Below, piece after piece: positions 1 to 41,719 of a stretch of 64,000 nucleotides of DNA. The position numbers and the translations under genes were made by a program. The notes below the pieces were generated by a model. The model had not been told where the DNA came from, did no database searches, and was given only the letters and a program-made list of their open reading frames with translations. Origin of the DNA: a virus; the IMG/VR virus record IMGVR_UViG_3300045988_069849, positions 162,273 through 226,272 of that record; one strand, written 5' to 3'. The stretch's first letter is position 1. Each line of letters begins with the position of its first letter.

Positions 1-11
1 AATCAAGTACT

Positions 12-1313
12 TCAACACTAATTTCTTTTATATCATAGTTATAGTAATAAGTACCGTTCCCAAGTTTTTGGATTGTCTAAGGATAAACGTCCATTTGTAT
101 TCTATTCGGCTCTAACATAAGGTGTTATTTTAAAATTTATAGGAAATTTGTATCTAAGCAAAGAATAGTGTAATCTCCTATTCTTACTTTTAAAATAGTA
201 GGGTTTATTGTTATACATGAAATGTACTCGAAAATGATTGTCATAATCAACAACCTCTACAATGTGAATATATTTATTATAAAACTTAGATATGTTAACT
301 TCTTTTCCATTCCAGTTAGAGAATTTCAATCCAGTTAATTCCTCTACCTTTCTCAGCAAGTTCTTAGAGTTGCAAAATTTCATCCATCCAAAATAAGACC
401 TCATTCTTCTATTCAATTCATCTTTATCAATCTTATTCTATTTATATAGATTTATAAGCCTAAACATCCTCATTTTTATAGATTTTTTCAGTAGAACATG
501 AGTATGATAGAATTTATAGCCTACGAAATCAATACCTCTGCTTTCTACAGGGAATATTTGATAATTAGGCTTCAACTCTAGGTTAAGAACCTGTTTCAAA
601 TATAGTTTTATAGATACTAATACATTTCTCAAATAATTCTTGTCATTACCAAGAATCACAATATCGTCAGCATATCGAAAGTAGTACTTACATTTTAACT
701 CCTCTTTTACCCAGTGGTCAAAATATGTCAGATATAAATTTGCAAAGAATTGTGATAGATAATTTCCAATAGGAACTCCCTTCGCTGAATAAATTATTTC
801 TTTCAACAGTTTTAATAGTTTTTTATCCTTTATCTTTCTCTATAACATTTCGTATAAAATGTCGTGAGTTATAGAAGGATAGAATTTTTTTATATCCATT
901 TTCAAGCAATACTTTGTTTCTTCTGGATGTTTCTATAACACCTTAAACAAATCATACTCTACTTTATGAATACCTCTATTTCGTATAGAGGAATATGTTT
1001 GGTCTATAAATATACTAGTCCAAATAGGCTCCATAATATTCATTATAGCATGGTGAGTTATTCTATCTGGATAGTATGGAAGTCTAAAGATTAATCTTTC
1101 TTTAGGTTCGTATATTATAAAGGTACTATATTCAGAGGTTTGATAAATCAAATCCCTTAACTTATCGGATAATTCCTTATTTTCTTTTAATCTATTCTTA
1201 TCATGCTGCTTGATTCCACATCTAATAGACTTATTTCTTCTAGCTTTATCGTCAGCTAGTTCGATGTTATCTTCAGCGTATACTTTCTCGTGCAAATATC
1301 CTACACGTTTCAA
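12..1313 (-). CDS. DGR reverse transcriptase; one frame read through in-frame TAG codons at 102-104, 438-440, 840-842, 933-935 (and 18-20)
   Basis: ORF-track fragments 933..1313, 438..806 and 102..416 (-) share one frame (lower coordinate = 0 mod 3) and each ends on TAG. The fragments contain RT motifs: RLIFRLPYYPDRITHHAIM (motifs 1-2), GVPIGNYLSQ (DGR-type SQ motif), YADDIVILG (YxDD). N-terminus LHEKVYAEDNIELADDKARRNKS resembles the DGR RT N-terminus. Apparent start is TTG at 1311-1313; putative TGA stop at 12-14. Confidence 0.8.
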
Positions 1314-1450
1314 TTTTTTATATATTTCATCGGAAGCGTTCGAGAATTAACCTACTAACACCCTTCATTCAACACTACGTTATCTTTTGCCTAGAGGCAA
1401 GGATATTACTTAGCAAACTAAAAAAAAATAATAAAATGTTTCTAAATATA

Positions 1451-1556
1451 TAATAACTCGACATTGGAATTGGCATTGCTGACGTCATTGTTAGAATTGA
1501 AATAGCTGAGACCTGCATTGCTGCCATTATTCGCGTTGCTGCCTACTAGCAGTACT
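1451..1556 (-). repeat. DGR template repeat (TR), A-rich in sense orientation
   Basis: A ~105-nt segment between the RT and the target gene. It is homologous to 1656-1762 and to 29043-29140. All ~27-28 mismatches against each copy fall at adenines of this copy, read on the minus strand. Confidence 0.8.
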
Positions 1557-1630
1557 TTTTTGCCAATCAACGGTTTTTAGAAGTAATATCCTACGATTTA
1601 TCATCTAAATCGATTTTTATATTGTATATC

Positions 1631-3448
1631 TTAAGATACTCTATTCAGAGTCCTGAACCCGACAATGGAAGAGGCACCGCCGACGCCACCGTCAGAATTG
1701 AAACAGCCGAGACCCGCACCGCCGCCAACATTCGCGCCGCCGCCCACCCGCAGCGTGCGAAGCGCTGTGCTGCTTGCGTTGCAGTAATGGTAATCGCAAA
1801 TATAAGTAGTAGCACTTCCTCCAACAGCGGATGGAATTATTTCAGCGGTTTCACCTAAGTCAAATGCCTTAATATAACCATCAGATGCTACTTCGTATCC
1901 TGCAACGGTTTTCTCTCCAACTACGTCGGTAAATTCCGATACGTTAGTAGTTGTATAGACAGTGCTAATCTCATTAGCAGCTGCTCTCACTATAACTACT
2001 CCGTCCAGGTTAGTCCAAATGTCTCCAAACGGATTATCGAACCCTCTCCAGCGAGGTACTTTAAATGTATGAGTTGCTACTGTATTTGTGCCATCTTGAG
2101 CTGTACATTCTGGAATAACTAAATCTTTTACTCCAGTGAAGTTACCAAATTCATTGCAGTAACCACAAGGCGTAAGTGGATATGTTGCATTATATCCTGA
2201 CCAACTTGTAGCTGCGTTAGCCCAATCTGTAACTCCAGGTCCCAAACCCCCTTGATGATATCCATCCGCAGTTAACTCTGCATTATATGCAGCCTAAGAA
2301 TTAAAATTAGCATATTCAATGACATAATTCCAGTAGAATATCCATTTGTAATATTCATAGCATAGCAATTCTGAACCAGCATTTGTTGCATATGTTCTCA
2401 TAGTAGCTCTAGAAATATTAGTTCTAGGCTTTCCTAAATCACTTCTGAATATATCCTTAGTTTCTAATTCTGTAGTTAGATAATCATCGTAGTTAGCTCT
2501 ATTTCCTCCACCTCTAAATGCAGTAGTAGTATTAACTACTGATACAGCTTTTGGAGTTGCGGAGACTGTGGTATCAACTGTACTTCTGTATGCATCTATT
2601 AATAGTTCAGGAATTTCTACCCATGAATCATCAATTTTGACAGTAGAAGTTCTAACCCATCTTTTGTTTCCATCGCTGCCAGATTTTCCATAAAATTTAG
2701 GAGTATTAACTCTTACTGTTCCATCAGTTCCATCTAAGACAGATGGAGTTTCTCCGTCTTCTTTATAAGACCAGTCATCTGGAAACAGATAGTAATTTAC
2801 TACATCATTGTTTGCTACACAACCTCTATACGCTGATTGAATAGGAAGAGATTTATGCAGCAAAGGATTACCTATTCTAGTAAGTTCCGGAGATGCTACT
2901 GTAACATCCCATTCTACTCCATAGGAATATAAATCCATATTACTATTTAGCTCAGTAATCTACTTATCAAGCTTTTGTTGTGCCTTCTACAATTCTTCCC
3001 AAGCCTCATTTAGCGCTGTAAATTGCTCTTCTAGCTTAGAACTTGAATCTGCCCATTCAGCAGTACCATCTGCTGAGAAAACTAGCATCTATCCAGATGC
3101 TCCTCCAGATGGAATATGTTTATTTCCAGAAGTAGTTGGATGTACATAATTATTAGCATTATTAGCTATAGTACTTAACTTTTCCTTCTCAGTTTCAGTA
3201 TAATTGGCTTCAGAAAGTCCCTTTCCTAACTCCTTATCTACTTTGCCTTCAAGCTCACCCTTAGTAGCTAATTCACTAATATCCTAATGCTCAGTTAAAT
3301 ATCCACTATCATTCTGTAACTAAGAAGTTTTAGTTGGAATTGCATTAGCCTTGGCATATGTCGTATCTATAACATTTCCAGCACCATCGTAAGTAGCTTT
3401 TAAATCGTATGTGGTTTCCCCAACCTTTATAGATTTGATTGCTGCCAT
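1631..3448 (-). CDS. tail fibre / receptor-binding protein (~605 aa); DGR target with VR1 at its C-terminus; in-frame TAGs at 2294, 2960, 2987, 3089, 3284, 3320
   Basis: One frame (lower coordinate = 2 mod 3) runs from ATG 3446-3448 to TAA 1631-1633, linking ORF-track fragments 2294..2938 and 1631..2245. It contains the conserved tail-fibre motif HIPSGGASG[Q]MLVFSADGTAEWAD, in which the Gln is encoded by TAG. The C-terminal ~35 aa are encoded by the GC-rich VR. Confidence 0.7.
1656..1762 (-). repeat. DGR variable repeat VR1
   Basis: A GC-rich island in an AT-rich genome. It aligns to the TR with ~28 substitutions, all but at most one at TR adenines. It lies at the 3' end of the tail-fibre ORF. 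Confidence 0.8.
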
Positions 3449-3461
3449 ATCATTGTATTAT

Positions 3462-3662
3462 TAAAGTTTCATCAACTACATCGTGATCTATTCCCTCTAT
3501 GGAAGCAGTTAGGTCCTCAACAGCCTTCTACAATTCTGCTTTAGTAGCATAGTTCTTGAGAACTTCCTAGTCTACTCCAGAGCCTCCTCCTATACTTCCT
3601 CCAACAACTTTTACTGGTTTGGCAGAACTCTTAAACTGTCCTTCAATATAAATTGTTCCCAT
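3462..3662 (-). CDS. small late protein (~66 aa), two in-frame TAG
   Basis: Manual translation with TAG=Q gives MGTIYIEGQFKSSAKPVKVVGG... It lies directly upstream of the tail-fibre start. Confidence 0.35.
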
Positions 3663-3689
3663 ATTGTTTAAAATATTAATTGTTCATTT

Positions 3690-5506
3690 TCTCCATCTAC
3701 CTCTACACTAGAACCTGGCTATAAAGCGTCTATCTTTTTCTACAATTCGGCTACGGCCTAGCTAATTAGTTCTTCTACCTCAGCTTTGGTGTAGTATCTC
3801 TCTATAAGATATTCGCTCCTAACATATCCAGTATCTTGTAAATCTTTTTCTCCATAGGTGCAATAATAAGTATCTTCTTCAGTCTTACTATTCTCAACTA
3901 GGTCATCATAATCAGCTTGTGGTAAGCATACAAGTTTTGGTACTTCTTCAGTAATAGCAACTTGCTTGCCTCCAGCAAATAGCCTGTTATCTTCTGTGGT
4001 AAGTTTAACAGAACTCTCAATAACTTGCTCAGTTCCTGTTTCCTCAGAAGGTTCTCCAGTTGTTCCCTATTGTACTTCTTTTTCTCCAATTTTCTAAATA
4101 GTAATATCAGAAGTTTCTACTGATGTAGATTTCAAAAGCTCAGTGCTAAATTCTTTAGCAGCAGCAGCCTAATCATCCTGATATTTTTTCTAGGTAACAA
4201 ATATGAAATCATCATCTCCGGTTTCAGGAGAGTCTCCCCTTAAACTTTCTTTTGTTACGTAATCTTCGGCTATCTAATCTGATAAATCAGATAATGACTA
4301 TTGAGTAGCATAAGTAGACTGAGCATTTTCCTTAGTAAGAAATTTGTCATCAACCTGCTAAATAGTATAATAAGCCTTAATATCTTCTGTAGTAACGTAG
4401 TTTCCAAGTTTTTGCAAACCTTGAACTATTTCATCAATCTACTTCTTGGAGTAATAATTTGTAGCAACCCAGGACTGATATTGATTGGTAGTATGATAAT
4501 TCTAATCCAAATATTCCTTAGTAATATAAACCTTTGCATCATTTGTGACGTCATATACATAGTAATATGTATCAGGCTCTACCGTCCCTTCCTCTACTAA
4601 CTTTAGATACTCTTCTTCAGTTAATGTTACTAAGTTCGGAATATCCGATTCAGTAGCAATCTAATCTTCACCTATAAATAATCCTTCAGACCTAACGTCT
4701 ACTACTAGCTAGCTCTCTCCCTCTACTACAGGAGATTTTATCTATCCAACAGTGATGCTTTCTAAGGAACCATCTCCATCTACCTTAAGAGTTTTATCTA
4801 ACTCGTCTTGGATGGCCTACTAATCTTCCTCATATTCTTTCTTTGTAACGAAGACAAAATCATCTCCTTCCATTCCCTCTCCTCTAAGACTTTCTTTAGT
4901 AACGAAAATATTGTCTGTTTCTTCCTTAGTATAATACTTAGTCAGGGATAGAGCTAAAGAATCATTAGAGACATAATTAGTAGTTAATTCTTCCAGTGTA
5001 GCATAATCTGATAGGCTGGCAATAGTGTTATCTAAGTCTGTTCTAATCTATACTACAGTAGTATTAAGGGCCTTCTGTTTTAATTGCTCTTCTATCTTTT
5101 TTCCCCATTCCGCAGATAGGTAAAACTAGTCATCGTCTAAGCTATCCTCATATATATAATAATATGTCTCAGCATGAAGATACGTTTTACTTTCATCTAT
5201 GGGCCTAAAATCGTCTGTAGTATTCTCAGACCATTCTTTATATTCAGCCTCTGTACAGGTGATTATCTAGATAGATTCATAGGATGCTTTCCATCCTTCC
5301 TTGTATTTAATCTTAGACTTATCAATTAGCATATAAATATTTCCGTTATCTATGTTAGCAACGGTCATACCTTGATAAGCATACTTCTCTGGAATAGAAT
5401 AAAGTTCGTCTAAGTTATTAACGACTGTTCTATTATCGAGAGGCTTCGGAGTTTCTACGGTTAAAGCGACACCTAAGGTAGCATCACCTGTATATTTAAA
5501 TGCCAT
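3690..5506 (-). CDS. late structural gene(s) with internal tandem repeats (DDFVFVTKKEYEED / DDFIFVTQKKYQDD); TAG-interrupted; probably 1-2 genes, internal boundaries unresolved
   Basis: Start is MAFKYTGDATLGV (ORF-track 5267..5506). The track fragment 3898..4089 is in a different frame. Coding is continuous only if TAG is sense. A ~45-nt repeat unit occurs at ~4170 and ~4840. Confidence 0.3.
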
Positions 5507-5507
5507 T

Positions 5508-7080
5508 ATTGTGATAGAATAAAGTTAATTTGATGTGGCAATGCTGAGGAGTAAGTATCTTTCTTAGTCCATACCTTGTAAGTAAATCCATTTATCTACT
5601 CGGTAGACGTTTCCCAACCACTTAGGTCTACATTTAAATATCCAAGTCCCCCATCTACGGTAAATGAATTTAACTATGTGTTACTTCCTGGCAATTTTAT
5701 AATAGCCTTACCACTTAGTGAAAATGTGATAGTTCCAGACGATTGTCCAAAAGGAACTAGCGCCTATTTAATCACACTATCAGTATTACCAGAATACCAA
5801 GGATATGTGGCTACTACCTAAGCGGTAGCGGAAATAGAACCAGCTTCTACTCTCTTATCTGTAACTTCTCCTTTATTGTTTATCAAATATTCTCCAGCGG
5901 CATAACTCACTGTACCAGAGTGAGTATAAGTACCAATAGAATTATATGTATCAGACTCTACAGGAGAACTGTTATAAGTAATAGTTTCTTGTCTGTCAGT
6001 TTCTTCTCCAGCATCATTCTTTATAAATGTAAGTGTAGGAGTTAATAAAGCAGTTCCTACTTCTACTATTTGAGAAGTAAAACTATAATAAAGCTATGGG
6101 TATACTAAATCTCTAACTACTGTTGGAAATAGTAAAGTATCAATAATCTCATTAAAGGGCTTGCCCTTAAGTTTCTCTACTGTAGTCCCTTCAATTACTG
6201 TTGAAGTAGTATCATCTGGGAGTTCTGTCTAATAAGTAGCTATAGTTTCTAAGTTAGTTTGTATATTAGTAATACTTTCAGTATTAGCTTCTACTTTAGT
6301 ATTTGTCTCTTGTTGTGCTTCCTAAGTTTTCTATACTTCTTTCTTTGTTTCTTCTAGAGCAGGTTCAAGATTCTTAACATAGATACCTGGAAGGATAATA
6401 GAAGAGGTTTCCTCTCCAATCTCCTATTCTATTAAATGAATAGCATTATCTTCCTAAGTAGATAAAATCACCTCTAAAGAATTATCTTCCTTTAGTTCTA
6501 TAGTTTTGGAATTTTGGAGACTATTCTTAATCCAATTAAGAATGTTTTTATCAACATCTATATTCTCAATAGCATTATTCAACTCAACTATAGCTTCATT
6601 GATTTTTACTATTTCTTCAGATAGATTATTAATCCCTTTTCTATTAGTATCAATTTCTCGTTGTAAATCCTCCTTCAATACAGATATAGAAGTTCTAATA
6701 TTGCTTATATCGACTTTCAGTTCTTCTATTGCTTCTGTATTAGATTCATATTCACTAATAAAGTATAGGGCATAGTCTAGGGCATCCTTCACAGTATTAA
6801 TACCTTCTGCAACGTCACTAGTATAGGTCCATTTTTGTTCTATATACTATACTAGGTCTTTTTGCAGTTCTATGGTTCCACTAATGTTTCCCCACAATAG
6901 ACTCTACTCATCAGCAATACCTAAGTTCTTTCTTACTTTAGCTTTTTCTAGTTCTGTCCTATATTCTCCTAAATAGTTATTTCTTAAGAGGGGTATAGGC
7001 TCACATTTTATAGGCTTACCCTTTTTACCACAAGGCACTATATCTGCGTTACTTACCGAAGTGTAAATAGACTGTATCAT
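5508..7080 (-). CDS. late structural protein (~520 aa, coiled-coil region; fibre/baseplate-like), several in-frame TAG
   Basis: Start MIQSIYTSVSNADIVPCGKKGKP at 7078-7080. It contains ORF-track fragment 6454..6792 and continues through TAG codons to TAA near 5508. The exact frame was not verified along the full length. Confidence 0.4.
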
Positions 7081-7234
7081 TCTAGTTTAATAATTGCTAT
7101 TTAATAAATTCGTGATTATCTAGTCTTACAGGTAGGTTAATAAAACAAATTAGATTAAGAATATCTTGATAATCTGGTTTATATCCCTTTTTGAGTTTTC
7201 TTAGAAAATCCTCATACCTTTTAATAGCCTTTCT

Positions 7235-7379
7235 CTTAAGAGCATCCACAACCTATACGTTTATGTCCATGGTGGTGATTATCACAGAATCCTCCACAGG
7301 TACGGAACATCGCTAGTAATCTCTCAGCCTCCATGAATTGTTTAAAGCATATTAAATAATCTATAATGTTAAGAGTCAT
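7235..7379 (-). CDS. small Cys/His-rich protein (MTLNIIDYLICFKQFMEAERLLAMFRTCGGFCDNHHHGHKRIGCGCS)
   Basis: Manual translation of a short ORF. Too short for the ORF track. Confidence 0.3.
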
Positions 7380-7481
7380 CCATATGAAATCTCGAGCAAA
7401 TATATCTGCTTCCTAATCTCTAGTTAGACACTTATTTAGTAAAGCATCAAAGAGTTTCTTACAATAATTAATGTAACACTA

Positions 7482-7967
7482 CTACAAGTTTCCTGTAAAG
7501 AAAACATCTACCTTACATTTTTTTATAGTAGTTCCTTCTATGTTTCGTTCAAGAACTTCTTTAACTGTACACTCTTCTAGCTTACCTTCTACTTCTTTAT
7601 ATAATTTTTCTCCATCAGTAACATAGATAGTCTCATAGTATTCCTTGTATTCGTCCGATGAATTTTCATACCATTTCATATTAGGAATAATGATATGGTC
7701 TACTACGTAATAACCATCATCCTTGACCTTAAACATACACGAGTCTAAGTCTTCTGTATGGTCATTAAGTAGGACATCTATCAGAGTAGCATCACTTATA
7801 CTAACTTTGATGATAGTATTCAAGGTAGCACTCTCACTATACTTATAGGAGTCGTAAGAAGTTACTACCTCTACATCTTCATCAATATACTAGCCATATT
7901 CTTTTGAGAAATCTTCTATCAGTATTTCCCCATTAATTTGGGTATGTATATCAATACTAAATTCCAT
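7482..7967 (-). CDS. late protein (~161 aa), one in-frame TAG
   Basis: ORF-track fragment 7482..7823 extends upstream through a TAG to the start MEFSIDIHTQINGEIL. Confidence 0.45.
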
Positions 7968-7980
7968 ATTGTAATAATTA

Positions 7981-8709
7981 AGACTCAATAGGCCACTAGC
8001 CATATTGAGCAGGGGTAGAAAAAGGTTTCCATTTACCTGCTTGTCTTATTCGTCTAGACATGAAGACGGAAGTAAATGATAAACTAATATCTTGAGGATA
8101 ATCTGTCCAGATATAAGAATATCCATCTGGGGTCGGAGGTAGTTTATCTAGTCCAGAAGAAGGCTGACCATTCCAATAGTAGTTATAGTCATATGCCTTT
8201 AGAGAAGTAACTTCTGTAGTTTCTTTCCCTTCAGCATCTATATACAGCGGATTTCCGTCCTCATCTGTTTTCTATTTATATTCTATAACTGGTGTTATTC
8301 CCTCGGTTCTAGTATATATAGTCTATATAATAGTAGAGACATCACTCGCTACTATTTCATAGATAGTAGTTCCCTATGATTCATCAGCTCCCTAAAAAGT
8401 AAATTTAGTTCTTTTCCATATATACGGATTCTCTTCTGTTGGAAGCTCAAAAGTATCAGACCACTACTTACTTGATAATTTTATTTCAGATTCATCGGCA
8501 GTATTAGCAGGGAGATAATGTATTTTAATAATAATACTATTAACTGCTTCACTTGAACCGGATAAATCTGATACCTACTTAAATAATTTTTTTAGGTCGT
8601 CTTCTACATTTGATTTAGAACCGGAAGCATTACTTATAATTACTGTCCCATCAGAGATAGGATAAATCTACTGCTAATCTTTGTTGTATACAATTGTTCC
8701 AGTTGCCAT
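7981..8709 (-). CDS. late structural protein (~240 aa), multiple in-frame TAG
   Basis: Manual translation MATGTIVYNKD[Q]QIYPISDGT... It starts directly after the portal stop. Confidence 0.4.
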
Positions 8710-8710
8710 A

Positions 8711-10882
8711 TTAATGTATTTGTCTTATTTTGTCATTATATGGATTTCCATCATGAAGCTAAGCCAACTCTATTTCAGTTCTTTTTTCTTCAATATCCAT
8801 TTGTCTATCTTTATAAGTAGAATCAGACTGAGCTTTAAGCCAGTTAACTTTATATTCTAACTGCATCTTCTACTATTCTAATCCTAGTCTCTATTCATCT
8901 AAGCTTTCAATCTTTTGCTGAGCTTTCTATAATTCTTGCTATAACTACTGAGCCTATTGAGAAGTTTCTTCTAATTTTTCTTGTAGTTGCTGAAGCTGAT
9001 TATTTTCCTCTTTGCGAACTTGAACAGCTTTCTTAACCTTATATTTAAGGTCTGTCAGACTCTTAGATGTAAGAGCCTCAAAAATAATATCTGGGTCCAT
9101 CTGTTGACTTTTTACGAACTCTGGAATGATTGCTTTTATAGTCTATAGATCTTCCATCACTTCTGAACTAGCAGTAATATGAATATCGTAGTCAGTAACA
9201 GTAAAATACTCAGGAAGTGCGGTGAATATCTGTTGATATTTATCCCCAAGTATAATAGTTCCAGTTAATCCTTTCTTATAAGTAACTTTAGCCTAATTAA
9301 GACTATCTAGTAGTATCTCGCAGGTTATTAAATCCATCTGCTAAAAATAGTGCTTAGTTACTATATACGAGTTAGCTACTCCCTACTTAATATTAGTAAC
9401 TGCATCTCTAGTTTCTATACCGTTAAGTCGTTCCCTAAATACTCCAGTTATTGATGATGTAGTTTGTTCTACTGATTGAATAGCTAATTCAATAGCCTAT
9501 ACAGCCTATGCTTTTAAGGTATCATCAAATCCGTTATATATCTAGTTTGGAGCTTGCTGTCCATCATTCCTACCTTCTTGGCTTGAGTCTATCCACATGA
9601 TACCACCTTTTTTATAGGCTAACCATTTTTGTACTCGTTCTGGCCATTTAACTCCTAAGTTGGTAGGCAACAGAGACATATCCATAATAACTCCGGCAGT
9701 ACCACTATTAGCTATTAGATTATCTCTATAATAGTTTAATAAGTCGTATCTATCCTACAGATGTGCACATTTTAATATAAGAGAATAAGGCTACTAAGAG
9801 CGATTTAAGAAATATACTCCATTTACCGATAAAGAACAGAAGTTGGGATTATCTTTAGATCTCATAACAGTCTTGTCTAATCCTCTAAGAATATATATCT
9901 CTTCTCCTATTCTAATAGTATTGTATCTCTACATCACAAAATCATCATCTGTTTCAATCCATTCAACATCATAGACTGGGATTAACTAGAACCTATGAGC
10001 ACTATATTCATTGTCTGGATAGCCGGGAATGGTTTCATGATTCTAATCTTCATTTACTACTGTACAAGTATCTCCATATACTCTTCTATAAACAGCAGCT
10101 GAATCATCAGCTCGCCATTCATCTTTTAGTCTTCTTAAATCTTCTCTAGATATTTCTTTGCCATATTTAGCTAAAATCTAACTCTTACTCATCCACTTTC
10201 TTACTACAACTCTATATGAGTTCCTTACATATGGAGATTCTGGATTTCTATCAACAAATGTATTAAGTGGGTTTAATACCTCTATTTCAATATTAGTTCC
10301 AGAAGCCGATGATTTCACTCTAAAGAATGTATAACCAGTAATTAATAGGTCTGTTAGTAACTAACGTAACTTAGTAATTAAATCGGTTTCTCTGGATTGC
10401 ATAATATAATGTACTATATTCTAAGCTGCAATTTCATATTGAGAAATAAAGGATTGGTCAATATCCTATATAATTTTATCTAACTAAGTCTTTACAGCTT
10501 TATCAGTAATATCCTTGCCATCAATAAACTTAAGAATTGAATTACTTAAATGGTCTTTCAAAAACTTTACTATTCCCTTGGTTATTTCTAGCTATTTTTC
10601 TCTTGTTATATTACTGATAGTATCTGAATCTTTGCAAGAAATTTTCGGAAGTATAGGAGTTCCTAAATATTCTCCAACTAGAGCATCTACGTGTTTCTTT
10701 AATAAAGGCGTAAACTCTACCGAAGTGGGGCTACCTATTCCGAAGTTTTCTTCCAGATAACGGAACTATTCAGGATCTCTTTTACCATTATAATAATTAT
10801 AAGCTTTCTGTAACTCATACTTATCATATACAAGTTCCGCAATAGCCTCGTTTGTCTTGTCTATCAATTCCTTCTCTTTCAT
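8711..10882 (-). CDS. putative portal protein (~724 aa) with a Q-rich C-terminal coiled coil; about 25 in-frame TAG
   Basis: A single frame runs from ATG 10880-10882 (MKEKELIDRTNEAIAELVYDKYELQKAYNYYNGKRDPE...) to TAA 8711-8713 when TAG=Q. It sits immediately downstream of terL and its size is portal-like. No motif-level proof. Confidence 0.45.
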
Positions 10883-11102
10883 AACATAAATTATGTTGTT
10901 CTGGAGGAAGTTTAGTAGCGTTATAATACTTAACTCTTTGTAACTTCCTACTTCTTAATTCTTCCTTAATAAATGGCAGAAATTCTTCGTCTGGTAAATC
11001 TGCTATTATTACTAATGGCATTTCTGACCTATCAAAGTTAAAAGAGACTTTATACCCAACTGGGTCTAAACTCTCAATATCTAGTCCGCCTATATACTCC
11101 AT
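10824..11102 (-). CDS. possible small ORF in an alternative frame, spanning the terL/portal junction
   Basis: ORF-track 10824..11285 is an uninterrupted 153 codons. It overlaps the terL 3' end and the portal 5' end in a third frame. Only the part downstream of the terL stop could be an independent gene. Confidence 0.2.
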   Translation of the reverse strand: MEYIGGLDIESLDPVGYKVSFNFDRSEMPLVIIADLPDEEFLPFIKEELRSRKLQRVKYYNATKLPPEQHNLCYEREGIDRQDKRGYCGTCI

Positions 11103-13437
11103 TTTGTACAAGTCCCTCATATATTCTAGGATCACTTGTTTCAACTCTGTATGGGTCATCATATTCGTTTCTTTGCATATTAAGTTCAGGAGTTTTCTTA
11201 GTTGGAATAACTCCAAATCTTTTAATTCCTCTCTCGTCGTAATAGTAACCAAAATCTTGGAACTATTCAACTTCTTTCTCCACAAGTACGGGCTGTCTTC
11301 CTGATAGCTCTTGGTCTGCCAACTCAGTCATACCTACAGCGGCTACAATATCATACTTACCCTTATTTTCATCATTATATGCAGTAAACTATTCTAGCAT
11401 TTCTTCGAACCATATAGTATGGCAATAGTCTTCTATAAAGGCGGCTGTTAAATCAGTATGCTATTCAATTATAGTTTTTGTAGCAGGAGTTCCATACTAT
11501 TTAGTAGTTCCATTTCTGACATCAGTTAGAGTAGCTCTTGGGCGCTTCATAAAATAGTTAAGGCATCCTTTTTCTCTAGCCCAAGTAACCATACCCATAC
11601 GAGTAGCTTCTATATTTATTTTACAATTATAATAGCGAGCTAAACACATAGCTATTTTATAGGCTTCTCTGATGTCTCCAGGTCTATCCTTGTACATAGC
11701 AACATACTGAGGGTCATTCATACCAAACGCACGTTTCTTAATCGTTATGCAGAAATCAGACGGATCTCTGGTTTCCTTAGAAGTCTAATTCGCTCCAATA
11801 TCAATACCGTCTATACCTGCTACGTATAAGTCTCGCATCTCTTTATAAACTGGAACTTCAAAATCCTAGCCATTATTTTCTGCTTCCTATCTAAGCTTTT
11901 CCATTTGTTCTTTATATAAGTCAGACCATATTGGATGCTCTAGAATTTTTACTTTACCATTGCTATTAGGAATCCATTTAAAGCCATCAATGTTATCCTA
12001 AGTATGTTTATTATTTTTGTAAAAATAATCAATATAACCACATTCGGGTCTTGGACCAATTTGTTTAAGTCTTATATTAGCTATCTATTCGGCAACTAAA
12101 ATTTTATTAAATTTATTAACACCTTCTAGATTAAATGCTTCTTCTGCATTCCAACAACGTTCAGCACATTTCTTTAGGTAGTCTTCTGGTACAGCTAACA
12201 GATTATCTCGCTCCTCCTATAAGAATTTCTTATATTCTACAGTATTACACACTCCTCTGTGGTCCATAAATTCTGGATTCAAAGATTGTATAAAGTATGG
12301 AATAAAGAATCCACTCTCTATAGTAGTCCCATCCTAAGTCCAATTATGTCTAAATGGAAGAATCTTATATGCTCTTGGATTATAGTAAATCTTTTTTAAG
12401 CCCTCTAGAGGAGCACCCATATCACCGCCAGTACCTCCAAACAACATTGTTCCACGAGGCATACCTTGAACTTCACAAAGTTCTTGACCTTGTACCACAG
12501 CGGTATCAAGTCCAGGCCAGGAACCAGCTTCATCATATATTAATAAATCTACACGGTCTCCACGAATGTTAGATGGTTTAGCTCCGTTAATTGCTACAAC
12601 CTCAGATTTAAATCCTACGTCTTCAAACTAACCATTTATTTTGATTTGTTTACCTGATTTCTTTCTCAAATCCTGGTCAATAAGTCGCAATTTAAAAAAT
12701 CCTCCTCCAGTACAGGTATTTAAGAATGTAAGAGCATTGTCAAACTTACTAAAGGTACCCTTAAGGAAGGTATCATTAAAGCAAGTAATCATAACCCTAC
12801 TTCTTCTAATAACAGAGTACATACGAGCAGAAAGAGAGGCGTTTATTTCAGAGAATCCAATAGAACGAGCTTTCATTAAAGCTGCGTGCTTGTGTAGCAC
12901 TCTAGCCATCTATAGATAATGAAAGAACATATAATGTGATGCAAAGAATATTGGGAAGTCATTATCAGTACCCTCACCAGAGGCTTTCTACTAGTCAATA
13001 GTAGGTAACTAATAGAAATTTAAGAAGAAGTAATTATCTCCAGTAATGGTGTATCCATTAACTGTCATTCCATACTTACATCTTCTATATTGCTCTTTCC
13101 AAAATTCGTTGTACCGCTTACTATCTCTAAGGTAGGGACAGTATTGACCAGTTCGTTTATATACTTCCCTAGTCTCGGTAAACCAATCTGGATTAAAGTC
13201 CAATCCATGAGTTTCGTCAATAGGTCTGTATCCAGTTATTTCATAAGATAAGGTAGGGTCAAATACTTCTATTTTATCTCCTATTTTAACATCCCAATAG
13301 TCAGAATTTCTGACCCTTTCCTCTCTTATTTTCTATACTAATTCTCTAGCTTCTTTAGCATCCTCTTTCTATTCTTTTTCTCTTACCTAATCTACAATAT
13401 TCTATATTTCTTCAGGTAATATCTTTTTTCTTGGCAT
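11074..13437 (-). CDS. terL: terminase large subunit (788 codons incl. stop), ~10 in-frame TAG
   Basis: One frame (lower coordinate = 1 mod 3) runs from ATG 13435-13437 to TGA 11074-11076, joining ORF-track fragments 13009..13203, 12628..12909 and 11497..11721. It contains the Walker B-like LLIYDEAG and an FGGTGGDMG motif. TAG codons sit in sensible positions, e.g. EEI[Q]NIVD[Q]VREKE[Q]KEDAKEARELV[Q]KIREE. Confidence 0.8.
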
Positions 13438-13439
13438 AA

Positions 13440-14006
13440 TTAAAAGTCTCCTGGGTCAAAACCATCCACAGCTCCAGCTCTAACAGTAGATTGTTCAGTA
13501 AGTTCTTTCTTAACCTAGTCTTCTAGTGTTATGAGTTCTTCATGAACTTTGTGAAGGGTAGCCATTTCCTTCATTACTTTTTCAGCCTGGAATACTGGTT
13601 TGCCGTTATTATCACGCTCATTTAAATCTACAATAGTTTCGAAATAATCAATAAACTAGTCTGCAGCTCTTTTAGCTGCTTCTAGTAATTTTATTGACTT
13701 GTTTGAATCTTGTAACGCTCTGTATTTCCTACAAGCTTCTCTAAATATAGGGTCATTAAATTCTGACTCTGTCAATCCAGAATCACTAATAGCTTCGTCA
13801 TGTCGTTCATGTTCCGAATACTAACTGTACGGACTTTTCCAGTCTATAGCTAAATAAATGTAAGATAGTTCTCTAGTAGCTCTATCCTTTTCTGCAGATT
13901 TATCCCTCTAGATTAAAGCCTTAAATTCCTTAACTAGCAATATCTCTGGTTCATTTATTTCTAGCTATTTAGTTAAAGTGTTATAGTTAAATACATTCAT
14001 AATCAT
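13440..14006 (-). CDS. putative terminase small subunit (~188 aa), 5 in-frame TAG
   Basis: Lies immediately upstream of terL. Manual translation MIMNVFNYNTLTK[Q]LEINEPEILLVKEFKALI[Q]RDKSAEKD... The assignment is positional only. Confidence 0.4.
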
Positions 14007-14037
14007 TAATCATTATCATACACATTAGATAATCTTA

Positions 14038-14616
14038 TTATTTCTTTTTCATTTTGGAACCGCACTTATTGACTTTCATTTTGGAACCACAAGCGTCTTT
14101 CTTAGCATATTGTTTTCTGTCAGGAACCCATTTTCCTCCCTGGAAATTACCCTTATGTCCCTTATTGGCCATAGTTTCCTAATCATTGTATTTATTGATT
14201 GATATAGAATCTCTTGAGGCTTCGTCTCTAGCAGATTTCATATCTTTCTTATACTAAGCTCTTCCAGCCTTAAATTTATCAACTTCATTAGCTTTCTTAG
14301 TAACTTTAGTTCCTTTTTGTGCTTTCTGGCAAGCTTTACAGATTCTACCGCCTTGCTTAAAATATACAAGCTCTTCTCCTTCTGGACATACTCCTTTTAG
14401 CTTCTTATAATACTCAAGCTTAGCTCCAAGCCTAGCCATTACTCCTCCTTGCATTTTCTGCATAAATTCCTGATACTTAGCTTTAATGCCGTCTTCTCCT
14501 AATTGTTCAGCATAAGCTTGTAAATCCTATTCAGATTGTACTTGTATTCCCTACGCAGCGGCATCTTGTATTAGATATGCCATAAATGCTTTTTGTAATT
14601 CTTCCTAGTTAGCCAT
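14038..14616 (-). CDS. basic Cys-rich protein (~192 aa), 3 in-frame TAG
   Basis: ORF-track 14254..14463 ends on TAG and continues. Start MANWEELQKAF at ~14616. The C-terminus ...CGSKMKKK ends at TAA 14038-14040. Confidence 0.4.
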
Positions 14617-14826
14617 TACTCTTCTACTTTAATTAAATCCTTAGTATTAAACACTGCTTCCTACATAAGTCCGGAATCAGTAAACCATCTACATCTTAAT
14701 CCTCGTAATCCTTGGTTATCTTTAAATAAAGCTGCTTCTCTTCTTAGAACAAGCATAACTGGAGAATGCATTACTTTACACTACCGTAAAGTAACACAAT
14801 CCCCAGGCTTAAAATAAACTTTTTCA

Positions 14827-15429
14827 TCAATTGTTTCCATACTTCAATTCGTTTCTTCTTTCAGTTAGCTTTTCGTTAACTACAGCCATAATTCTGTTCT
14901 CATTAACTACAACAAATCCAAACTTGTAGAACGGAACCATGCACTCGCTAGCTATTGTATAGAATACTATATCTCCAGGTTTTAGGAACTCACACTTGTG
15001 CCCAACCTCAATAACAGTACCCACTTTAATAAATTGTTGTTCTTCTTCTATTTCTCCTGTTTCATTAGATTTATATGTTGGAGCAAACCCACCTAAGTCT
15101 GTAATTAATCCACTCTTAGTAGTTTTAATTTTTTGAAACGGATTTTGTTCGAAAGGTTTAATTAATGCATACCCATACATAGGCATAATTTCTACACCAT
15201 TCATATCCTCAGATAATGATTTGGCGTAAGATTCTAAAGCTGCATTATGTTTAGAGAATTTATCTTCTAATTCATCTACTGCTGTATTGAATCTTTCCTG
15301 TTTTTCTCTTAATAAAGTTTTATCTGCAGCTTCTCCATTTACTATAAGGTGCTGTCCTGTACCTTCCATACCAGTTATAGCTAGTGCTAGTTTCTCATTA
15401 CTGTTCAATTCTGTTCTTAAAGTTTCCAT
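14827..15429 (-). CDS. hypothetical protein (200 aa), standard code
   Basis: Intact ORF in the track with a TGA stop. Confidence 0.6.
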   Translation of the reverse strand: METLRTELNSNEKLALAITGMEGTGQHLIVNGEAADKTLLREKQERFNTAVDELEDKFSKHNAALESYAKSLSEDMNGVEIMPMYGYALIKPFEQNPFQKIKTTKSGLITDLGGFAPTYKSNETGEIEEEQQFIKVGTVIEVGHKCEFLKPGDIVFYTIASECMVPFYKFGFVVVNENRIMAVVNEKLTERRNELKYGNN

Positions 15430-19292: not shown

Positions 19293-19306
19293 TATTAATT
19301 TTGGCG

Positions 19307-19378
19307 TTGCCCTACTAGGATTCGAACCCAGACTAAATGATTTAGAGTCATCTGTGCTGACCATTACACCATAGGGCA
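19307..19378 (-). tRNA. amber suppressor tRNA, anticodon CUA (reads UAG), tRNA-Gln-derived
   Basis: Cloverleaf: acceptor tgcccta/tagggca, D-arm gtgt-aatggtca-gcac, anticodon stem gatga/tcatt with loop CUCUAAA (positions 34-36 = CUA), variable tagt, T-arm ctggg-ttcgaat-cctag, discriminator A. D-arm and T-arm are nearly identical to tRNA-Gln(UUG) at 34205-34276. Confidence 0.8.
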
Positions 19379-27682: not shown

Positions 27683-27934
27683 ATGAGTACGGAAAAGGAT
27701 ACTTGCCAGAAATCTGGTACTAGTGTAATATTCCAAAAAGAAATTACGCAGTGTAGGGAATGTCCTCATTGTAGAATCGCTCCTGACCCAGACCCTGACG
27801 ACTGGTTCAATGACGATGATGAAAAAGCGCTTTGTAAAGAAGCAGGGAATAAACTAATTGAGGGAATGTTAAGACCTTACGAAAGGGTATTAATTCCGGA
27901 TTGGTGTCCATTAAAAACTAATAAACAAAAATGA
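27683..27934 (+). CDS. Cys-containing small protein
   Basis: ORF track; CRECPHC... Confidence 0.45.
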   Translation: MSTEKDTCQKSGTSVIFQKEITQCRECPHCRIAPDPDPDDWFNDDDEKALCKEAGNKLIEGMLRPYERVLIPDWCPLKTNKQK

Positions 27935-28395
27935 ATAGAATTAAGACAAAAGCCTATCTTGAGGTAACTTTAGAGCAGGCACGCGAATGGTATGAAAGCG
28001 GTAATGAAGACTTGAAGAAATTAGCTCTTACTGCATTTAGTGAGGAAATGCTAATTCCTTCCTTTAAAGAGATAGTAGAGTCTGAAGAAGATTATGGTTT
28101 TTGGAATACATTAGTATGTCCTCCAAGCATGACAGAACAACTCAGTTCTCTAGCTAGTTTACAAATAGTTGCTAACTATCTAAATAAAGGATGGATCAAA
28201 ACAGAAGGTAATACTGGCTATTTTCTTGGAAAAGGTTCTTCTCTATCTGGAAAGACGGAAACTGATATAAAAGGAGTGTACGTCGTCATGCATCAAAACG
28301 TAAAATATCCAGGTATTGTTTATTTTAGAACTGTAGCTGATGCACAGAAAGCGGTAAAGATTCTTGGTAAAAAGTTATTGCCGTTGTTTGAATAA
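27931..28395 (+). CDS. hypothetical protein (154 aa)
   Basis: ORF track. Confidence 0.55.
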   Translation: MNRIKTKAYLEVTLEQAREWYESGNEDLKKLALTAFSEEMLIPSFKEIVESEEDYGFWNTLVCPPSMTEQLSSLASLQIVANYLNKGWIKTEGNTGYFLGKGSSLSGKTETDIKGVYVVMHQNVKYPGIVYFRTVADAQKAVKILGKKLLPLFE

Positions 28396-28697: not shown

Positions 28698-29258
28698 ATG
28701 AAAAAGACAATTGAAATCGAATGTCCTGATGGTTACAAACCAGTTTACAATGCAGAGACTGGAAAAGTAGAAATTGTGTCTGAAGACATTACTGCAAGGG
28801 TACAGACTTACGAAGATGCTTGTAAAATCATGAGTAGAGATGTCTATGGTAATGTTCCTGCAAATTTCTCTGTTGATGCTTTGCGCAAATTGCACGTCAT
28901 TCTCGATGCCTTAAACGAAGGACATAAGTTTAATCTATTAACTGGAACTGTATGGTATCCTTGGGTTCGGTTCTTTAGAATGAAATCAGTACCGAAAGAT
29001 GCAGAGGTCATTGGACACTTCCGTTATCAGGGCGAGAAATTCGCGTTGGTGGGCGGCGGCGCGAATGTTGGCGGCGATGCGGGTCTCGGCTCTTTCTATT
29101 CTGACTATGGCGTCGGCGATGCCTGTTCCATTGTCGGGTTGCTTGCGTGCAAATCTGAGGAGATTGCCAAATATGTATCAACTCAGTTTGGCAAACTCGT
29201 ATTCGAAGCTTGTTTTGCCAGACACTTCAATGTAGGAGAATTTGAATGGCTAGACTAA
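28698..29258 (+). CDS. second DGR target protein (186 aa) carrying VR2 near its C-terminus
   Basis: ORF track. Residues ~115-150 (LVGGGANVGGDAGLGSFYSDYGVGDACSIVGL) are encoded by VR2. They parallel the tail-fibre C-terminus LRVGGGANVGGGAGLGCFNSDGGVGGASSIVGF. Confidence 0.7.
   Translation: MKKTIEIECPDGYKPVYNAETGKVEIVSEDITARVQTYEDACKIMSRDVYGNVPANFSVDALRKLHVILDALNEGHKFNLLTGTVWYPWVRFFRMKSVPKDAEVIGHFRYQGEKFALVGGGANVGGDAGLGSFYSDYGVGDACSIVGLLACKSEEIAKYVSTQFGKLVFEACFARHFNVGEFEWLD
29043..29140 (+). repeat. DGR variable repeat VR2 (remote, opposite strand to TR/RT)
   Basis: Aligned to the TR sense strand there are 27 mismatches, every one at a TR adenine. VR2 also differs from VR1 at many of the same positions. 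Confidence 0.8.
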
Positions 29259-30272: not shown

Positions 30273-30491
30273 ATGAAGAGAATTAGATTAATTTGTATGA
30301 TGGCTGTTGTAGCAATAGTTACGGCAGTCTGTTGTTCGTTTACTTCTAGGGAAGACCGAAATCATTTTTCGGTTATAAAGGTATATACCGACCCTAATAG
30401 TCACATGAATGTCTATAGAGTCTCCGTTCCTGGGAGAGTGTATTACGTACTTCATAATACGACTCAAGGAGGGTTATGTAAATTACAATGA
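30273..30491 (+). CDS. small secreted/membrane protein
   Basis: ORF track. Confidence 0.4.
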   Translation: MKRIRLICMMAVVAIVTAVCCSFTSREDRNHFSVIKVYTDPNSHMNVYRVSVPGRVYYVLHNTTQGGLCKLQ

Positions 30492-31015
30492 GCGAAACTT
30501 ATTATCTCTTAGCAGCCATTTCGTATGGCATTTTTATTGTTCAGTTCATACTCTCTTGGTTTGGTGGCGACACTGACTTAGATGTAGATTTAGATGGAGA
30601 ATTGGACATGGATGTGAGTGATATTGTCTCTTTTAAAGGACTAGTACATTTTGTAATGGGAGCAAGTGGATGGCTTTGTATTAAGCATTCCGTTTCTCAT
30701 TCTATAGAATGGTACGATTATTTAATCGCATTAATATGCGGTATTCTTTTTGTGGTTATACTTTACTACTTATATAAACTTTGTTTAAAACTCCAACATC
30801 AAGTTATTCCTGAAAAGGGTGAAGCCTTAGTTGGGAGAATTGGAACAATCACTATCCCTAATGATATTTCTGGTGGTAGTTCTGTTATCTTAGTTGAGAT
30901 AAATGGAATGCTTCAAGAATTGTCAGCTTATGCTGAAGAAGAGCATAAGACGTATAAAAACGGGGACAAAGTGAGAATTTCAAAATTTGAGAATGGAAAG
31001 TATTATTTTAACTAA
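30488..31015 (+). CDS. NfeD-like membrane protein (partner of SPFH proteins)
   Basis: N-terminal TM helices plus a C-terminal OB-like region GEALVGRIGTITIPN...GDKVRISKFENGKYYF. Lies directly upstream of, and translationally coupled to, the SPFH gene. Confidence 0.55.
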   Translation: MSETYYLLAAISYGIFIVQFILSWFGGDTDLDVDLDGELDMDVSDIVSFKGLVHFVMGASGWLCIKHSVSHSIEWYDYLIALICGILFVVILYYLYKLCLKLQHQVIPEKGEALVGRIGTITIPNDISGGSSVILVEINGMLQELSAYAEEEHKTYKNGDKVRISKFENGKYYFN

Positions 31016-31030
31016 AAAGAATTTTTAAAG

Positions 31031-40299: not shown

Positions 40300-40665
40300 A
40301 TGATAGTACAACCTATTGGAAAGTTTAAACTTACTTATGCAAATGGTATAAGTCAAGTTAAGCTGTTAATAACTCAGGAAGACTACAAGTCTATTGTCAA
40401 ACCTATATTAGATAATATAGCTGAGTTAGAGGCACAGCGAAGTGGGATTAATAAAAAGAGTAAAAGGTATAAGGAAATTTCGGAAAAACTTAGAGAACTG
40501 AAAAAACCTATATCGGAACTTGGAGAGTTTTTTACAAGCACGTCTCCTCTTGGATTAGCACTATGGAGTAGTCGCTTCCCAAACTTGATACTTCCGCCTC
40601 AACAAGGCGGTGGACATTTTGTTAGATTTGAAAAATTAGATTTGTATGAAAATAAGGAAGGTTAA
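40300..40665 (+). CDS. hypothetical protein (121 aa)
   Basis: ORF track. Confidence 0.5.
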   Translation: MIVQPIGKFKLTYANGISQVKLLITQEDYKSIVKPILDNIAELEAQRSGINKKSKRYKEISEKLRELKKPISELGEFFTSTSPLGLALWSSRFPNLILPPQQGGGHFVRFEKLDLYENKEG

Positions 40666-40902
40666 CTCTACTATCAAAAGACGAGTTCTTAGGGAAGTGT
40701 CTAGAGAGTGCAGAAAGAGGAATATGATGGACAAGAAAGGTGAAATTCCAAATGATATTAAGGACATATGGGAAGCGATTAAAGTATTAACAAAGAGAAA
40801 TAAACAATTTGCTGTTAGATATGCATCAATGTGATTATTGTTGTTGGTATAATCCTGCTAGTGGGTGCTGTAATTGTCCATACGTAATGAGACGGAAAGC
40901 GT

Positions 40903-41100
40903 GTGAGAAGGCTCGTAAACAGAAAGAAGAAAATGAAAAGCCTAGAAAGTTATAGCATATTTACTAAGCCTAAACTATCTAATCCTGTATCATGGGAGGA
41001 TATGAAAGAATTTAATACCCATATGAAGGAAGTAGTTAGAGACTATAAGATTAGGCAAGCTAAAGCTAGAGAAAGCGCTAAGAAAGTAATTATTAAGTAA
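40903..41100 (+). CDS. small basic protein
   Basis: ORF track. Confidence 0.4.
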   Translation: MRRLVNRKKKMKSLESYSIFTKPKLSNPVSWEDMKEFNTHMKEVVRDYKIRQAKARESAKKVIIK

Positions 41101-41364
41101 ATACTAACCTGGCAAGGTAAAAATCCAGTCGGGGTCTGTTAGCATTTATGCTAATAAGTCGAAGCCAGTCCCTGCGTAGTTATAATAGGCAAGCTGAACT
41201 TGAGAATTGTTAAACGGATGGTTGCCGTTAAAAGATATATAGTTACAAACTTATGTATCCAGAATATAACTAATTAAAGACTTATCTGGTGATGTTAGGT
41301 TATGGAATCCTAACAGTGGAAATTTATGAGTTATGTCACCAATTAAAAAGAAAATCTCAAACAT

Positions 41365-41437
41365 GGGCCGTTAGCTCAAATGGCTAGAGCGCTGGTTTTG
41401 CACACCGGAAGATAGGGTTCGAGTCCCTGCGTGTCCA
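41365..41437 (+). tRNA. tRNA-Ala-like (TGC) with G3-U70 but an imperfect acceptor stem (possible pseudo-tRNA)
   Basis: D-arm gctc-aaatggcta-gagc; anticodon arm ctggt-ttTGCac-accgg; T-arm taggg-ttcgagt-ccctg. Acceptor gggccgt vs cgtgtcc pairs only at positions 1-4. Confidence 0.45.
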
Positions 41438-41455
41438 CAACAAAATTAAATAATT

Positions 41456-41641
41456 ATGAAAGTATACGTAGTCGTAGTGAATCATCATCCAGCTAATGCG
41501 CCTCAGAACTATAAAACTGAGTGTCAGATATTTCTGGATAAAAAGGAAGCCGAAGGCTATAAGAAAGCCAAGGAAGAAGAATATCCCATACGTTGGGGAG
41601 GTGAATACAATCATTGTGAAATATTTAAAAAACATTTGTAA
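41456..41641 (+). CDS. small protein (61 aa)
   Basis: ORF track. Confidence 0.4.
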   Translation: MKVYVVVVNHHPANAPQNYKTECQIFLDKKEAEGYKKAKEEEYPIRWGGEYNHCEIFKKHL

Positions 41642-41644
41642 TAT

Positions 41645-41717
41645 CGCGGGGTGTTAGCAGAGGTAGCTAGTCAGGCTCATAACCTGAAGGTCGAGGGTTC
41701 GAGTCCCTCTCCCGCTA
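41645..41717 (+). tRNA. tRNA with CAT anticodon (fourth CAT copy)
   Basis: D-arm tagc-agaggta-gcta; anticodon arm tcagg-ctCATaa-cctga; T-arm gaggg-ttcgagt-ccctc. Exact acceptor pairing is ambiguous. Confidence 0.55.
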
Positions 41718-41719
41718 CT

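Follow-up and report, generated by a model that had tools for sequence, protein, structure and literature searches.

We analysed a 64,000-nt stretch of viral DNA (positions 162,273 to 226,272 of IMG/VR record IMGVR_UViG_3300045988_069849; hereafter, the window) and found that it very probably carries an active diversity-generating retroelement (DGR) that has two targets and lacks the accessory protein Avd. The template repeat (TR), the reverse transcriptase (RT), and the first target, a tail-fibre gene with one variable repeat (VR), lie side by side near the start of the window, and the second target is a small gene far away on the other strand. An original prediction made from the sequence alone had recognised a complete DGR here; the finding is real and was correctly interpreted, its mechanism is conventional, and the element is richer than had been described. 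Its main parts are as follows.

1631..3448, minus strand: target gene 1, a tail-fibre protein of 605 aa with a putative C-type-lectin-like C-terminal tip
1656..1754, minus strand: variable repeat 1 (VR1), inside the fibre gene, encoding residues ~565-598
1455..1553, minus strand: the TR, non-coding, in the intergenic region between fibre and RT genes, with 31 adenines and 10 AAY codons in the VR frame
39..1313, minus strand: the reverse transcriptase gene of the DGR, which begins with TTG at 1313, has 424 codons, and stops with TAA at 41..39
28698..29258, plus strand: target gene 2 (T2), 186 aa, without TAG codons or a signal peptide, of an unannotated family
29047..29140, plus strand: variable repeat 2 (VR2), 27.5 kb from the TR and on the opposite strand, encoding T2 residues ~117-148

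The differences between the TR and its variable copies fall almost entirely at TR adenines. A repeat search paired 1455-1552 with 1656-1753 at 74% identity, and the best ungapped register of TR and VR1 was a 201-nt offset. Read on the minus strand, which is the sense strand, the two repeats were mismatched at 26 of 99 positions, and 25 of these mismatches lay where the TR has A (21 to G, 3 to T, and 1 to C), the remaining one being a T>G change 5 bases from the 5' edge. Given that the TR holds 31 A in 99 nt, the hypergeometric probability of this adenine bias is 1e-16. The claim of adenine-specific mismatches in the original prediction, which had proposed tabulating them by TR base, was thus borne out on recomputation for both VRs; its count of about 28 substitutions was slightly high, its TR and VR1 coordinates were right to within a few bases, and its start of the element at position 12 has to be moved, given that the RT stop codon is at 39-41. 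The repeats stand out, as it had also said, as GC-rich islands (GC content of 0.68 in VR1 and 0.63 in VR2 versus 0.36 in the window; 0.44 in the TR). VR1 is in frame and ends 7 codons before the fibre stop, about 80 nt separate the fibre gene from the non-coding TR, and the TR lies 141 nt upstream of the RT start. In the VR frame, substitution of TR adenines cannot yield a stop codon, and the resulting repertoire amounts to 9.45e15 peptides.

The second repeat was located by scanning the whole window, on both strands, for the 68 non-adenine positions of the TR. One further match was returned, at 29042-29140 (+), with 65 of the 68 positions identical, and the next best site matched at 34. True homology begins at ~29047, and VR2 differs from the TR at 23 adenines and at 3 other positions, all of them in the first five bases (P = 8e-13). 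The original prediction had named a VR2 without coordinates; the repeat exists, in a small non-structural gene and not in a second fibre, and it too is in frame toward the 3' end of its target, with ~38 codons between it and the T2 stop. Adenine-masked TR scans found no third VR in the window or in any relative, and the copies (TR, VR1, and VR2) numbered exactly three in 18 of the 32 contigs and exceeded three in none, with one remote copy per genome. A sister clade in which the RT is ~70% identical and TAG-free has the adjacent TR-VR1 pair only and no VR2, so the remote target appears to be specific to the clade of the window.

We took the case for activity from related IMG/VR genomes (contigs of 183-193 kb), from which 25 sets of TR and VR1 and 30 VR2 sequences were extracted. 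The TR was near-invariant across the 25 genomes, with 99 of 99 positions identical in most, whereas all 25 VR1 sequences were distinct and the 30 VR2 sequences included 29 distinct ones, two contigs sharing one. Mean column entropy was 1.28 bits in VR1 and 1.24 bits in VR2 at columns where the TR has adenine and 0.18 and 0.05 bits, respectively, at other columns. In T2, 11 residues take up to 15 amino acids each, as AAY codons allow, and the other 165 residues average 0.08 bits. In this comparison of assembled genomes, therefore, the VRs vary among close relatives at TR-adenine positions while the TR stays constant; the original prediction had named invariant VRs as the result that would speak against it, and between genomes the opposite was seen. 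The RT reading frame was also maintained across 80 relatives.

Natural variants of the TR serve as markers in this data set. The TR variants T8C, or C18T, C30T, C45T, and C93T together, recur in VR1 and VR2 of the same genomes, showing that sequence information moves between the TR and both VRs, to at least position 93. The direction of this transfer is most simply from the TR to the VRs. The adenine at TR position 95 is G in 55 of 55 VRs (GTCGAGTT versus GTCGGGTT) and is the only fixed difference between VR and TR at the 3' end, and a G94A variant in one TR was absent from the VRs of the same genome. Taken together, these two observations suggest that transfer ends on the 3' side at GTCG|GGTT, at TR positions ~93-95, or that a glycine codon there is under strong selection. 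Four AGC-templated codons are nearly always GGC in the VRs, which indicates that the scaffold glycines are probably under selection. Some relatives depart from the common pattern: the TRs of two genomes (L004 and L078, both at 9761-9859) carry A>N substitutions over part of their length, as if a mutagenised cDNA or VR had overwritten the template, and VR1 of two others (L007 and L023) has a rearranged 5' half, with 13 and 8 non-adenine mismatches, respectively.

The RT itself is of the DGR type. Its translation contains YADD and GVPIGNYLSQ, the latter a GxxxSQ motif, as had been read from the sequence before, and it matched Pfam RVT_1 (1e-19) and phrog_1423, annotated as reverse transcriptase (6.5e-113). 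Since Pfam and NCBIfam hold no DGR-specific RT model, we judged the clade by matches to PDB and PHROG. The best match among solved structures was 8ub7_A (E 1.2e-44), which over the aligned segment has exactly the sequence of Brt (bRT) from Bordetella phage BPP-1. The RTs of group II introns and of the retron type came next, at 1e-15 or worse, and the NCBIfam group II, retron, and DRT models scored far under their cut-offs (group II, 113 versus 300; retron, 70 versus 235). The GxxxSQ and YxDD motifs and this greater proximity to bRT than to group II or retron enzymes place the protein in the DGR clade. Identity to the RTs of crAss-like phages was 52-58% (58% to cr7_1 and 56% to LMMB and its relatives), and the RT of LMMB was placed in lineage 3 by the authors who described it (PMC7290462). 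In both cr7_1 and LMMB, the RT comes after a tail or tail-collar fibre gene. Homology with these RTs reaches residue ~395-399, whereas bRT of BPP-1 stops at a point equivalent to residue ~329, so that residues 330-403 form a basic C-terminal extension of 74 residues (isoelectric point [pI] 9.9) that is absent from bRT. Codon 404 is TAG (104..102), and the non-recoded RTs of the sister clade terminate at about residue 407; the last 20 residues, which overlap the next open reading frame (ORF), may thus be a read-through tail.

An intact RT and an intact fibre require that TAG be read as glutamine, a point on which the original prediction had been silent. The RT has four in-frame TAG codons (935, 842, 440, and 104) and the fibre gene six; under the standard code the RT would be three ORFs and the fibre several, every internal stop is TAG, and both genes end in TAA. 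The one fibre TAG that is covered by the homologue alignment corresponds to Gln in 75 of 79 homologues, and the RT TAG positions are Gln or TAG in closer relatives. We therefore regard the assignment of TAG to Gln as well supported by comparative sequence evidence. The window contains 29 tRNA genes, two of them with a CUA anticodon.

19306..19378, minus strand: suppressor tRNA with anticodon CUA, 57/73 identical to the phage tRNA-Gln(UUG)
21667..21738, plus strand: second predicted tRNA with anticodon CUA

These two genes sit between a minus-strand block rich in TAG and a plus-strand block poor in it. When TAG is read through, the minus-strand late/structural block (39-14840) consists of long genes with 2-28 in-frame TAG codons each, and in the plus-strand genes (20237-63824) TAG is nearly absent, most having none. 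Elsewhere in the tRNA set, ARAGORN predicted a tRNA-Tyr with the unusual anticodon AUA (39354-39436, +) and four tRNA-Met genes within 34990-41718. The RT region of the published phage cr7_1 (NC_055895) has five in-frame TAGs and is annotated as two coding sequences, and its annotated tRNA-Gln (L001 2895-2965) has a CUA anticodon loop and resembles the suppressor tRNA of the window; the published cr7_1 DGR RT is thus probably amber-recoded and mis-split as well.

We considered that the element might instead be a fossil, in which the RT is a pseudogene broken by stops and the TR/VR pattern is a frozen footprint. The splitting of both genes under the standard code would fit such a reading, and the question of past versus present activity has been raised for DGRs of the zeta-crAss phages (PMC12386605). 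However, each interrupting codon is TAG, which is used in frame throughout the late-gene block, the genome has two tRNA-CUA genes, and the fibre TAG aligns with a conserved Gln. The RT frame has been kept across the relatives, and differing VRs on an identical TR, together with the mirrored TR point variants, are not what a frozen footprint would be expected to show. The fossil reading is already largely refuted, and we hold it to be extremely unlikely. A different objection concerns VR2 alone, which could be a recombined copy of the fibre VR that landed in T2 and has since varied through recombination with VR1 or through positive selection, without being a target of retrohoming. In its favour, VR1 and VR2 of the window genome are unusually alike, with 7 differences over columns 6-96 compared with 16.5 +/- 3.0 (minimum 8, n=689 pairs) between pairs taken across genomes; there is no conserved hairpin downstream of VR2; and the divergent clade is without VR2. 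The two repeats of the window could be so close because one VR has recently converted the other, because both descend from one cDNA lineage, or because the assembly collapsed them, all of which are possible. Against the copy reading, VR1 and VR2 of other genomes differ at 17-34 positions, and in 19 of 20 genomes VR2 differs from its own TR at 15-25 A sites and 0-1 non-A sites; only L078 departs from this, and there the TR itself is altered. The variation is limited to TR-adenine codons, with up to 15 residues at each, the TR markers are present in VR2, and distant members of the T2 family have a VR-like hypervariable block of their own. A mere copy is therefore very unlikely to account for VR2, and an active DGR that diversifies both genes fits these observations.

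Several points nevertheless weigh against our interpretation. Activity was deduced by comparing assembled genomes with one another rather than by reads or experiment, and gene conversion could in principle also give concerted changes in TR and VR. We found no GC-rich initiation of mutagenic homing (IMH) sequence and no hairpin common to both VRs, and no Avd or other accessory gene was detected, the 80-nt and 141-nt gaps holding no ORF. The spacer RNA described below scored 28.7 bits, which is under the Rfam gathering score of 40.4. The structure model of the fibre tip is moderately confident (predicted local distance difference test [pLDDT] of 70) with weak Foldseek E-values, and that of T2 has low confidence (pLDDT of 44.6; the usable sequences in its alignment were all >90% identical).

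Missing from the earlier reading was an RNA element in the spacer that separates the TR from the RT, which, together with a hairpin on the other side of the TR, we list here.

1316..1404, minus strand: conserved structured RNA in the TR-RT spacer, similar to RT-17 of Rfam; its P1 hairpin reads CCUUGCC-UCUA-GGCAAAA and its core GUGUUAGUAGG...CUCGAA
1594..1612, minus strand: 7-bp hairpin CGATTTA-GATGA-TAAATCG between the fibre stop and the TR, a predicted fold

A block of ~90 nt in the spacer is kept in relatives whose RT is just 70% identical, and the AT-rich stretch right after the TR is not conserved. The block aligned to RF03020 (RT-17) over the full model length with an E value of 0.0014, and the matching regions of cr7_1 and LMMB scored 38.6 and 30.5 bits. 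The window RNA shares with RF03020 the P1 hairpin, the UGGUAG...CGAA core, and a position beside an RT gene; given its sub-threshold score, it counts as a diverged relative and not as one of the curated members. In the RNAalifold prediction, a 5-bp P1 hairpin contains a single compensatory G-C>A-U change, and P2, the other helix, varies among GU, GC, and AU pairs. An invariant A/U helix could pair the sequence just after the TR with that just before the RT start codon. In one relative (L073, 9837-10004), the RT-17-like motif is tandemly duplicated between TR and RT. In BPP-1, a related motif, RT-10, lies between TR and brt, and Weinberg et al. (2017) proposed a role for it in priming; a role of RT-17 in DGRs was put forward as a speculation by the same source (PMC5737381). 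By analogy, we infer that the spacer RNA may be the portion of the DGR RNA that is bound by the RT and serves in priming. The hairpin at 1594..1612 is conserved in the clade of the window, with a double compensatory change in two genomes (L015/L020), and is absent in the divergent clade. It could be a target-recognition structure for VR1 or a 5' element of the TR transcript. No conserved counterpart of it was found after VR2, and short hairpins are present but none is conserved at both targets, so a cruciform requirement in the style of BPP-1 is unsupported. A sigma-70 promoter and terminator scan, with a model that is not designed for Bacteroidota or phage promoters, returned nothing on the sense strand.

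The order target-TR-RT without an avd gene, as had been described for this locus, was supported, given that there was no Avd-like ORF in the gaps or among the nearby ORFs tested. A 70-aa ORF upstream of the fibre (3450-3662) had no Pfam or PHROG match, and neither the ORF overlapping the RT 3' end (acidic, pI 4.8) nor a 73-aa ORF found downstream in relatives had any likeness to Avd or to a Pfam family. This arrangement agrees with architecture A, or lineage 3, of Wu et al. (2018), defined by the order target-TR-RT without an accessory gene (PMC5758913, PMC7290462). Avd occurs in ~74% of DGRs and is not universal, the Avd-less architecture A/lineage 3 making up about 29% (PMC5758913), and the first DGR described from a crAss-like phage was also without avd (PMC7290462). 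The ORF that overlaps the RT 3' end (118..1, minus strand) is in another frame, runs off the edge of the window, and matches phrog_11557, which has no assigned function. In relatives it is ~125 aa long and is conserved even where the RT is 70% identical, with a CBM_5_12-like C-terminal fusion in one clade, and the order downstream of the RT is this ORF, the 73-aa ORF, and then a 2169-aa structural gene.

We also weighed whether an unrecognised accessory factor replaces Avd, which could be the 74-aa basic extension of the RT, the acidic ORF 118..1, or some protein of the host. BPP-1 cannot do without Avd (PMC5758913), for which no gene was found here; the extension, with its pI of 9.9, is conserved to residue ~395-399 in the cr7_1 and LMMB RTs and absent in bRT; and the downstream ORF is conserved in relatives as divergent as the sister clade. 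The fusion of that ORF to a carbohydrate-binding-like domain in some relatives, however, along with its acidity, suggests a structural protein. An accessory factor of this kind is a real possibility, if short of an even one, and it would refine an active two-target DGR rather than compete with it.

The first target is a tail protein by its match to PHROG 5302 (1.9e-83). It belongs to no Pfam or NCBIfam family, and its family profile found nothing significant among PDB sequences. We modelled the last 220 residues from an 80-sequence alignment (pLDDT of 69.7, predicted template modelling score of 0.66). Foldseek ranked TaqVP first (E 0.2), and in the fold comparison the top match was followed by the Nanoarchaeota DGR protein AvpA (3.7) and BPP-1 Mtd (2.9), with >20 canonical C-type lectins and FGE-type proteins further down. 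The model begins after the last TAG and is without the N-terminal helices of the domain, which has probably lowered these scores. A C-type-lectin fold for the fibre tip, expected by the original prediction, is thus moderately well supported by the model, and the variable region of the first target would lie on it.

The second target is of a different kind. T2 matched phrog_11581, to which no function is assigned; it had no Pfam or NCBIfam family match, a profile of its family found nothing significant among PDB sequences and Pfam, and there was no match to T2 in annotated GenBank phage genomes. Its likeness to the fibre tip is confined to the VR block of 39-41 residues (hhalign probability 96%). 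The family comprises 836 homologues in 90% clusters and at least 244 clusters at 50% identity. Its members are small, have no signal peptide and no TAG, and lie in the early non-structural region beside an NfeD/Band_7-like membrane module. The more distant members have similar non-structural neighbourhoods in which synteny to a Band_7/SPFH gene is kept, and variable columns recur in the same arrangement in a 198-aa subfamily. Given this retained context and the shared variable columns, T2-like proteins seem to be recurrent hypervariable targets.

Just upstream of T2, with a tRNA-His between, lies a gene (27931-28392, +) whose N-terminal domain of ~85 residues is shared with the T2 family (hhalign 96%) and whose C-terminal half is different and without a VR. 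A short distance after T2, at 30488-32989 (+), is an ~650-aa gene that contains A/E/K-rich direct repeats and is preceded by a small membrane protein; the copies of this gene in distant relatives (L183, 5327-7781; L184, 6349-8803) have a Pfam Band_7/SPFH match.

A broader proposal can be built on T2, although we consider it doubtful. T2 would belong to a family of DGR-diversified phage proteins, widespread and so far undescribed, whose members do not serve the virion as receptor-binding proteins; a late-expressed, amber-gated RT working independently of Avd would diversify a protein that is used early in the next infection; and the basic extension of the RT and the RT-17-like RNA would take the place of Avd. 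If this were true, the binding partner of T2 might be a host factor that varies, a defence component, or a target for exclusion.

Following the BPP-1 paradigm, we propose that a transcript of the TR and the conserved RT-17-like spacer would be bound by the RT and that cDNA synthesis would be primed from the spacer, with misincorporation opposite template adenines. The cDNA would then replace VR1 or VR2, with a 3' transfer boundary at the GTCG|GGTT site. Because the RT and fibre genes carry TAG codons and T2 has none, synthesis of the RT would depend on the phage suppressor tRNA(s), and mutagenesis would probably be confined to the late phase. Up to ~1e16 stop-free peptide variants could arise in this way, after which selection would keep glycine at the four AGC-templated and the GAG-templated codons.

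The phage that carries the element is a crAss-like gut phage of ~185-190 kb, probably of the Zeta group. Its TerL-like (terminase large subunit) protein of 787 aa (11074-13437) shares 25-29% identity with annotated terminases of Crassvirales; for unannotated gut phage contigs the figure is 43-44%. A megablast search of window positions 1-12000 against GenBank phages gave no match. The Zeta group (proposed Echekviridae) is suggested by the 183-193 kb of the relatives, the 29 tRNAs with two CUA anticodons, and the amber recoding. A 2025 paper on Zeta crAss-like phages reported DGRs in 18 of 43 genomes and amber codons in seven RT genes, with GxxxSQ motifs, long RT C-termini, and C-type-lectin tail-fibre targets, Avd being absent in all but two genomes (PMC12386605). 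These traits have their match in the window and its relatives, and the match extends to genomes of 155-189 kb with a tRNA block, a CUA suppressor, and amber recoding, and to a DGR in the virion-gene block with an amber RT and a variable RT C-terminus. That paper differs in that its amber-recoded genomes have one VR per TR, and neither a remote non-structural target nor a spacer RNA was described.

Among other known systems, the BPP-1 DGR (mtd-avd-TR-brt) has the closest solved relative of the RT, adenine-specific TR-to-VR differences, a VR at the 3' end of a receptor-binding fibre gene with a C-type-lectin fold, and a TR that is non-coding and lies a short way upstream of the RT, the spacer between the two being structured (RT-10 there and RT-17-like here). 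Unlike BPP-1, the window has no avd, neither a GC-rich IMH nor a strong cruciform following the VRs, YADD in place of YMDD, an RT C-terminus that is ~75-95 aa longer, two targets, and recoded TAG codons. The DGRs of crAssphage LMMB and of Intestiviridae/Suoliviridae (lineage 3, TG-VR-TR-RT; PMC7290462) share with it the gene order, the absence of avd, a fibre target beside the RT, an RT-17-like spacer RNA, and an RT that is 56-58% identical over residues 1-399, including the extension. These phages differ in their ~100-kb genomes, in the single adjacent target reported, in a TerL that is only 25-29% identical, and, for LMMB, in an RT without TAG. Service of one adjacent and one distant target by a single TR within the same genome is known from the Bacteroides uniformis "Bacuni" siphoviruses (PMC8143477), and non-adjacent targets at <=50 kb from the RT are common in phage DGRs (Wu et al.; PMC5758913). 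The Bacuni phages, however, are siphoviruses of ~40 kb that have Avd. Annotated phage genomes in GenBank gave no relative of the window's T2.

In summary, Avd-less target-TR-RT DGRs, crAss-like DGRs, amber-recoded RT genes in zeta-crAss phages, and non-adjacent targets in phages are already published, and the known DGR mechanism is unchanged by our findings. What they appear to add is a remote T2 target with its family, a link between RT-17-like RNA and crAss-type DGRs, and natural marker-transfer evidence. Annotation under the standard code hides such DGRs, given that the RT then looks like three fragments. The genomes compared here offer clear evidence from nature that an Avd-less DGR of the crAss type appears active, and they point to two leads, a small hypervariable protein family in the non-structural region of large gut phages and a spacer RNA that ties the orphan RT-17 motif to DGRs. 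Among the viruses of the human gut, crAss-like phages rank with the most abundant, and the way in which they keep pace with the changing surfaces of Bacteroidales is a practical question.

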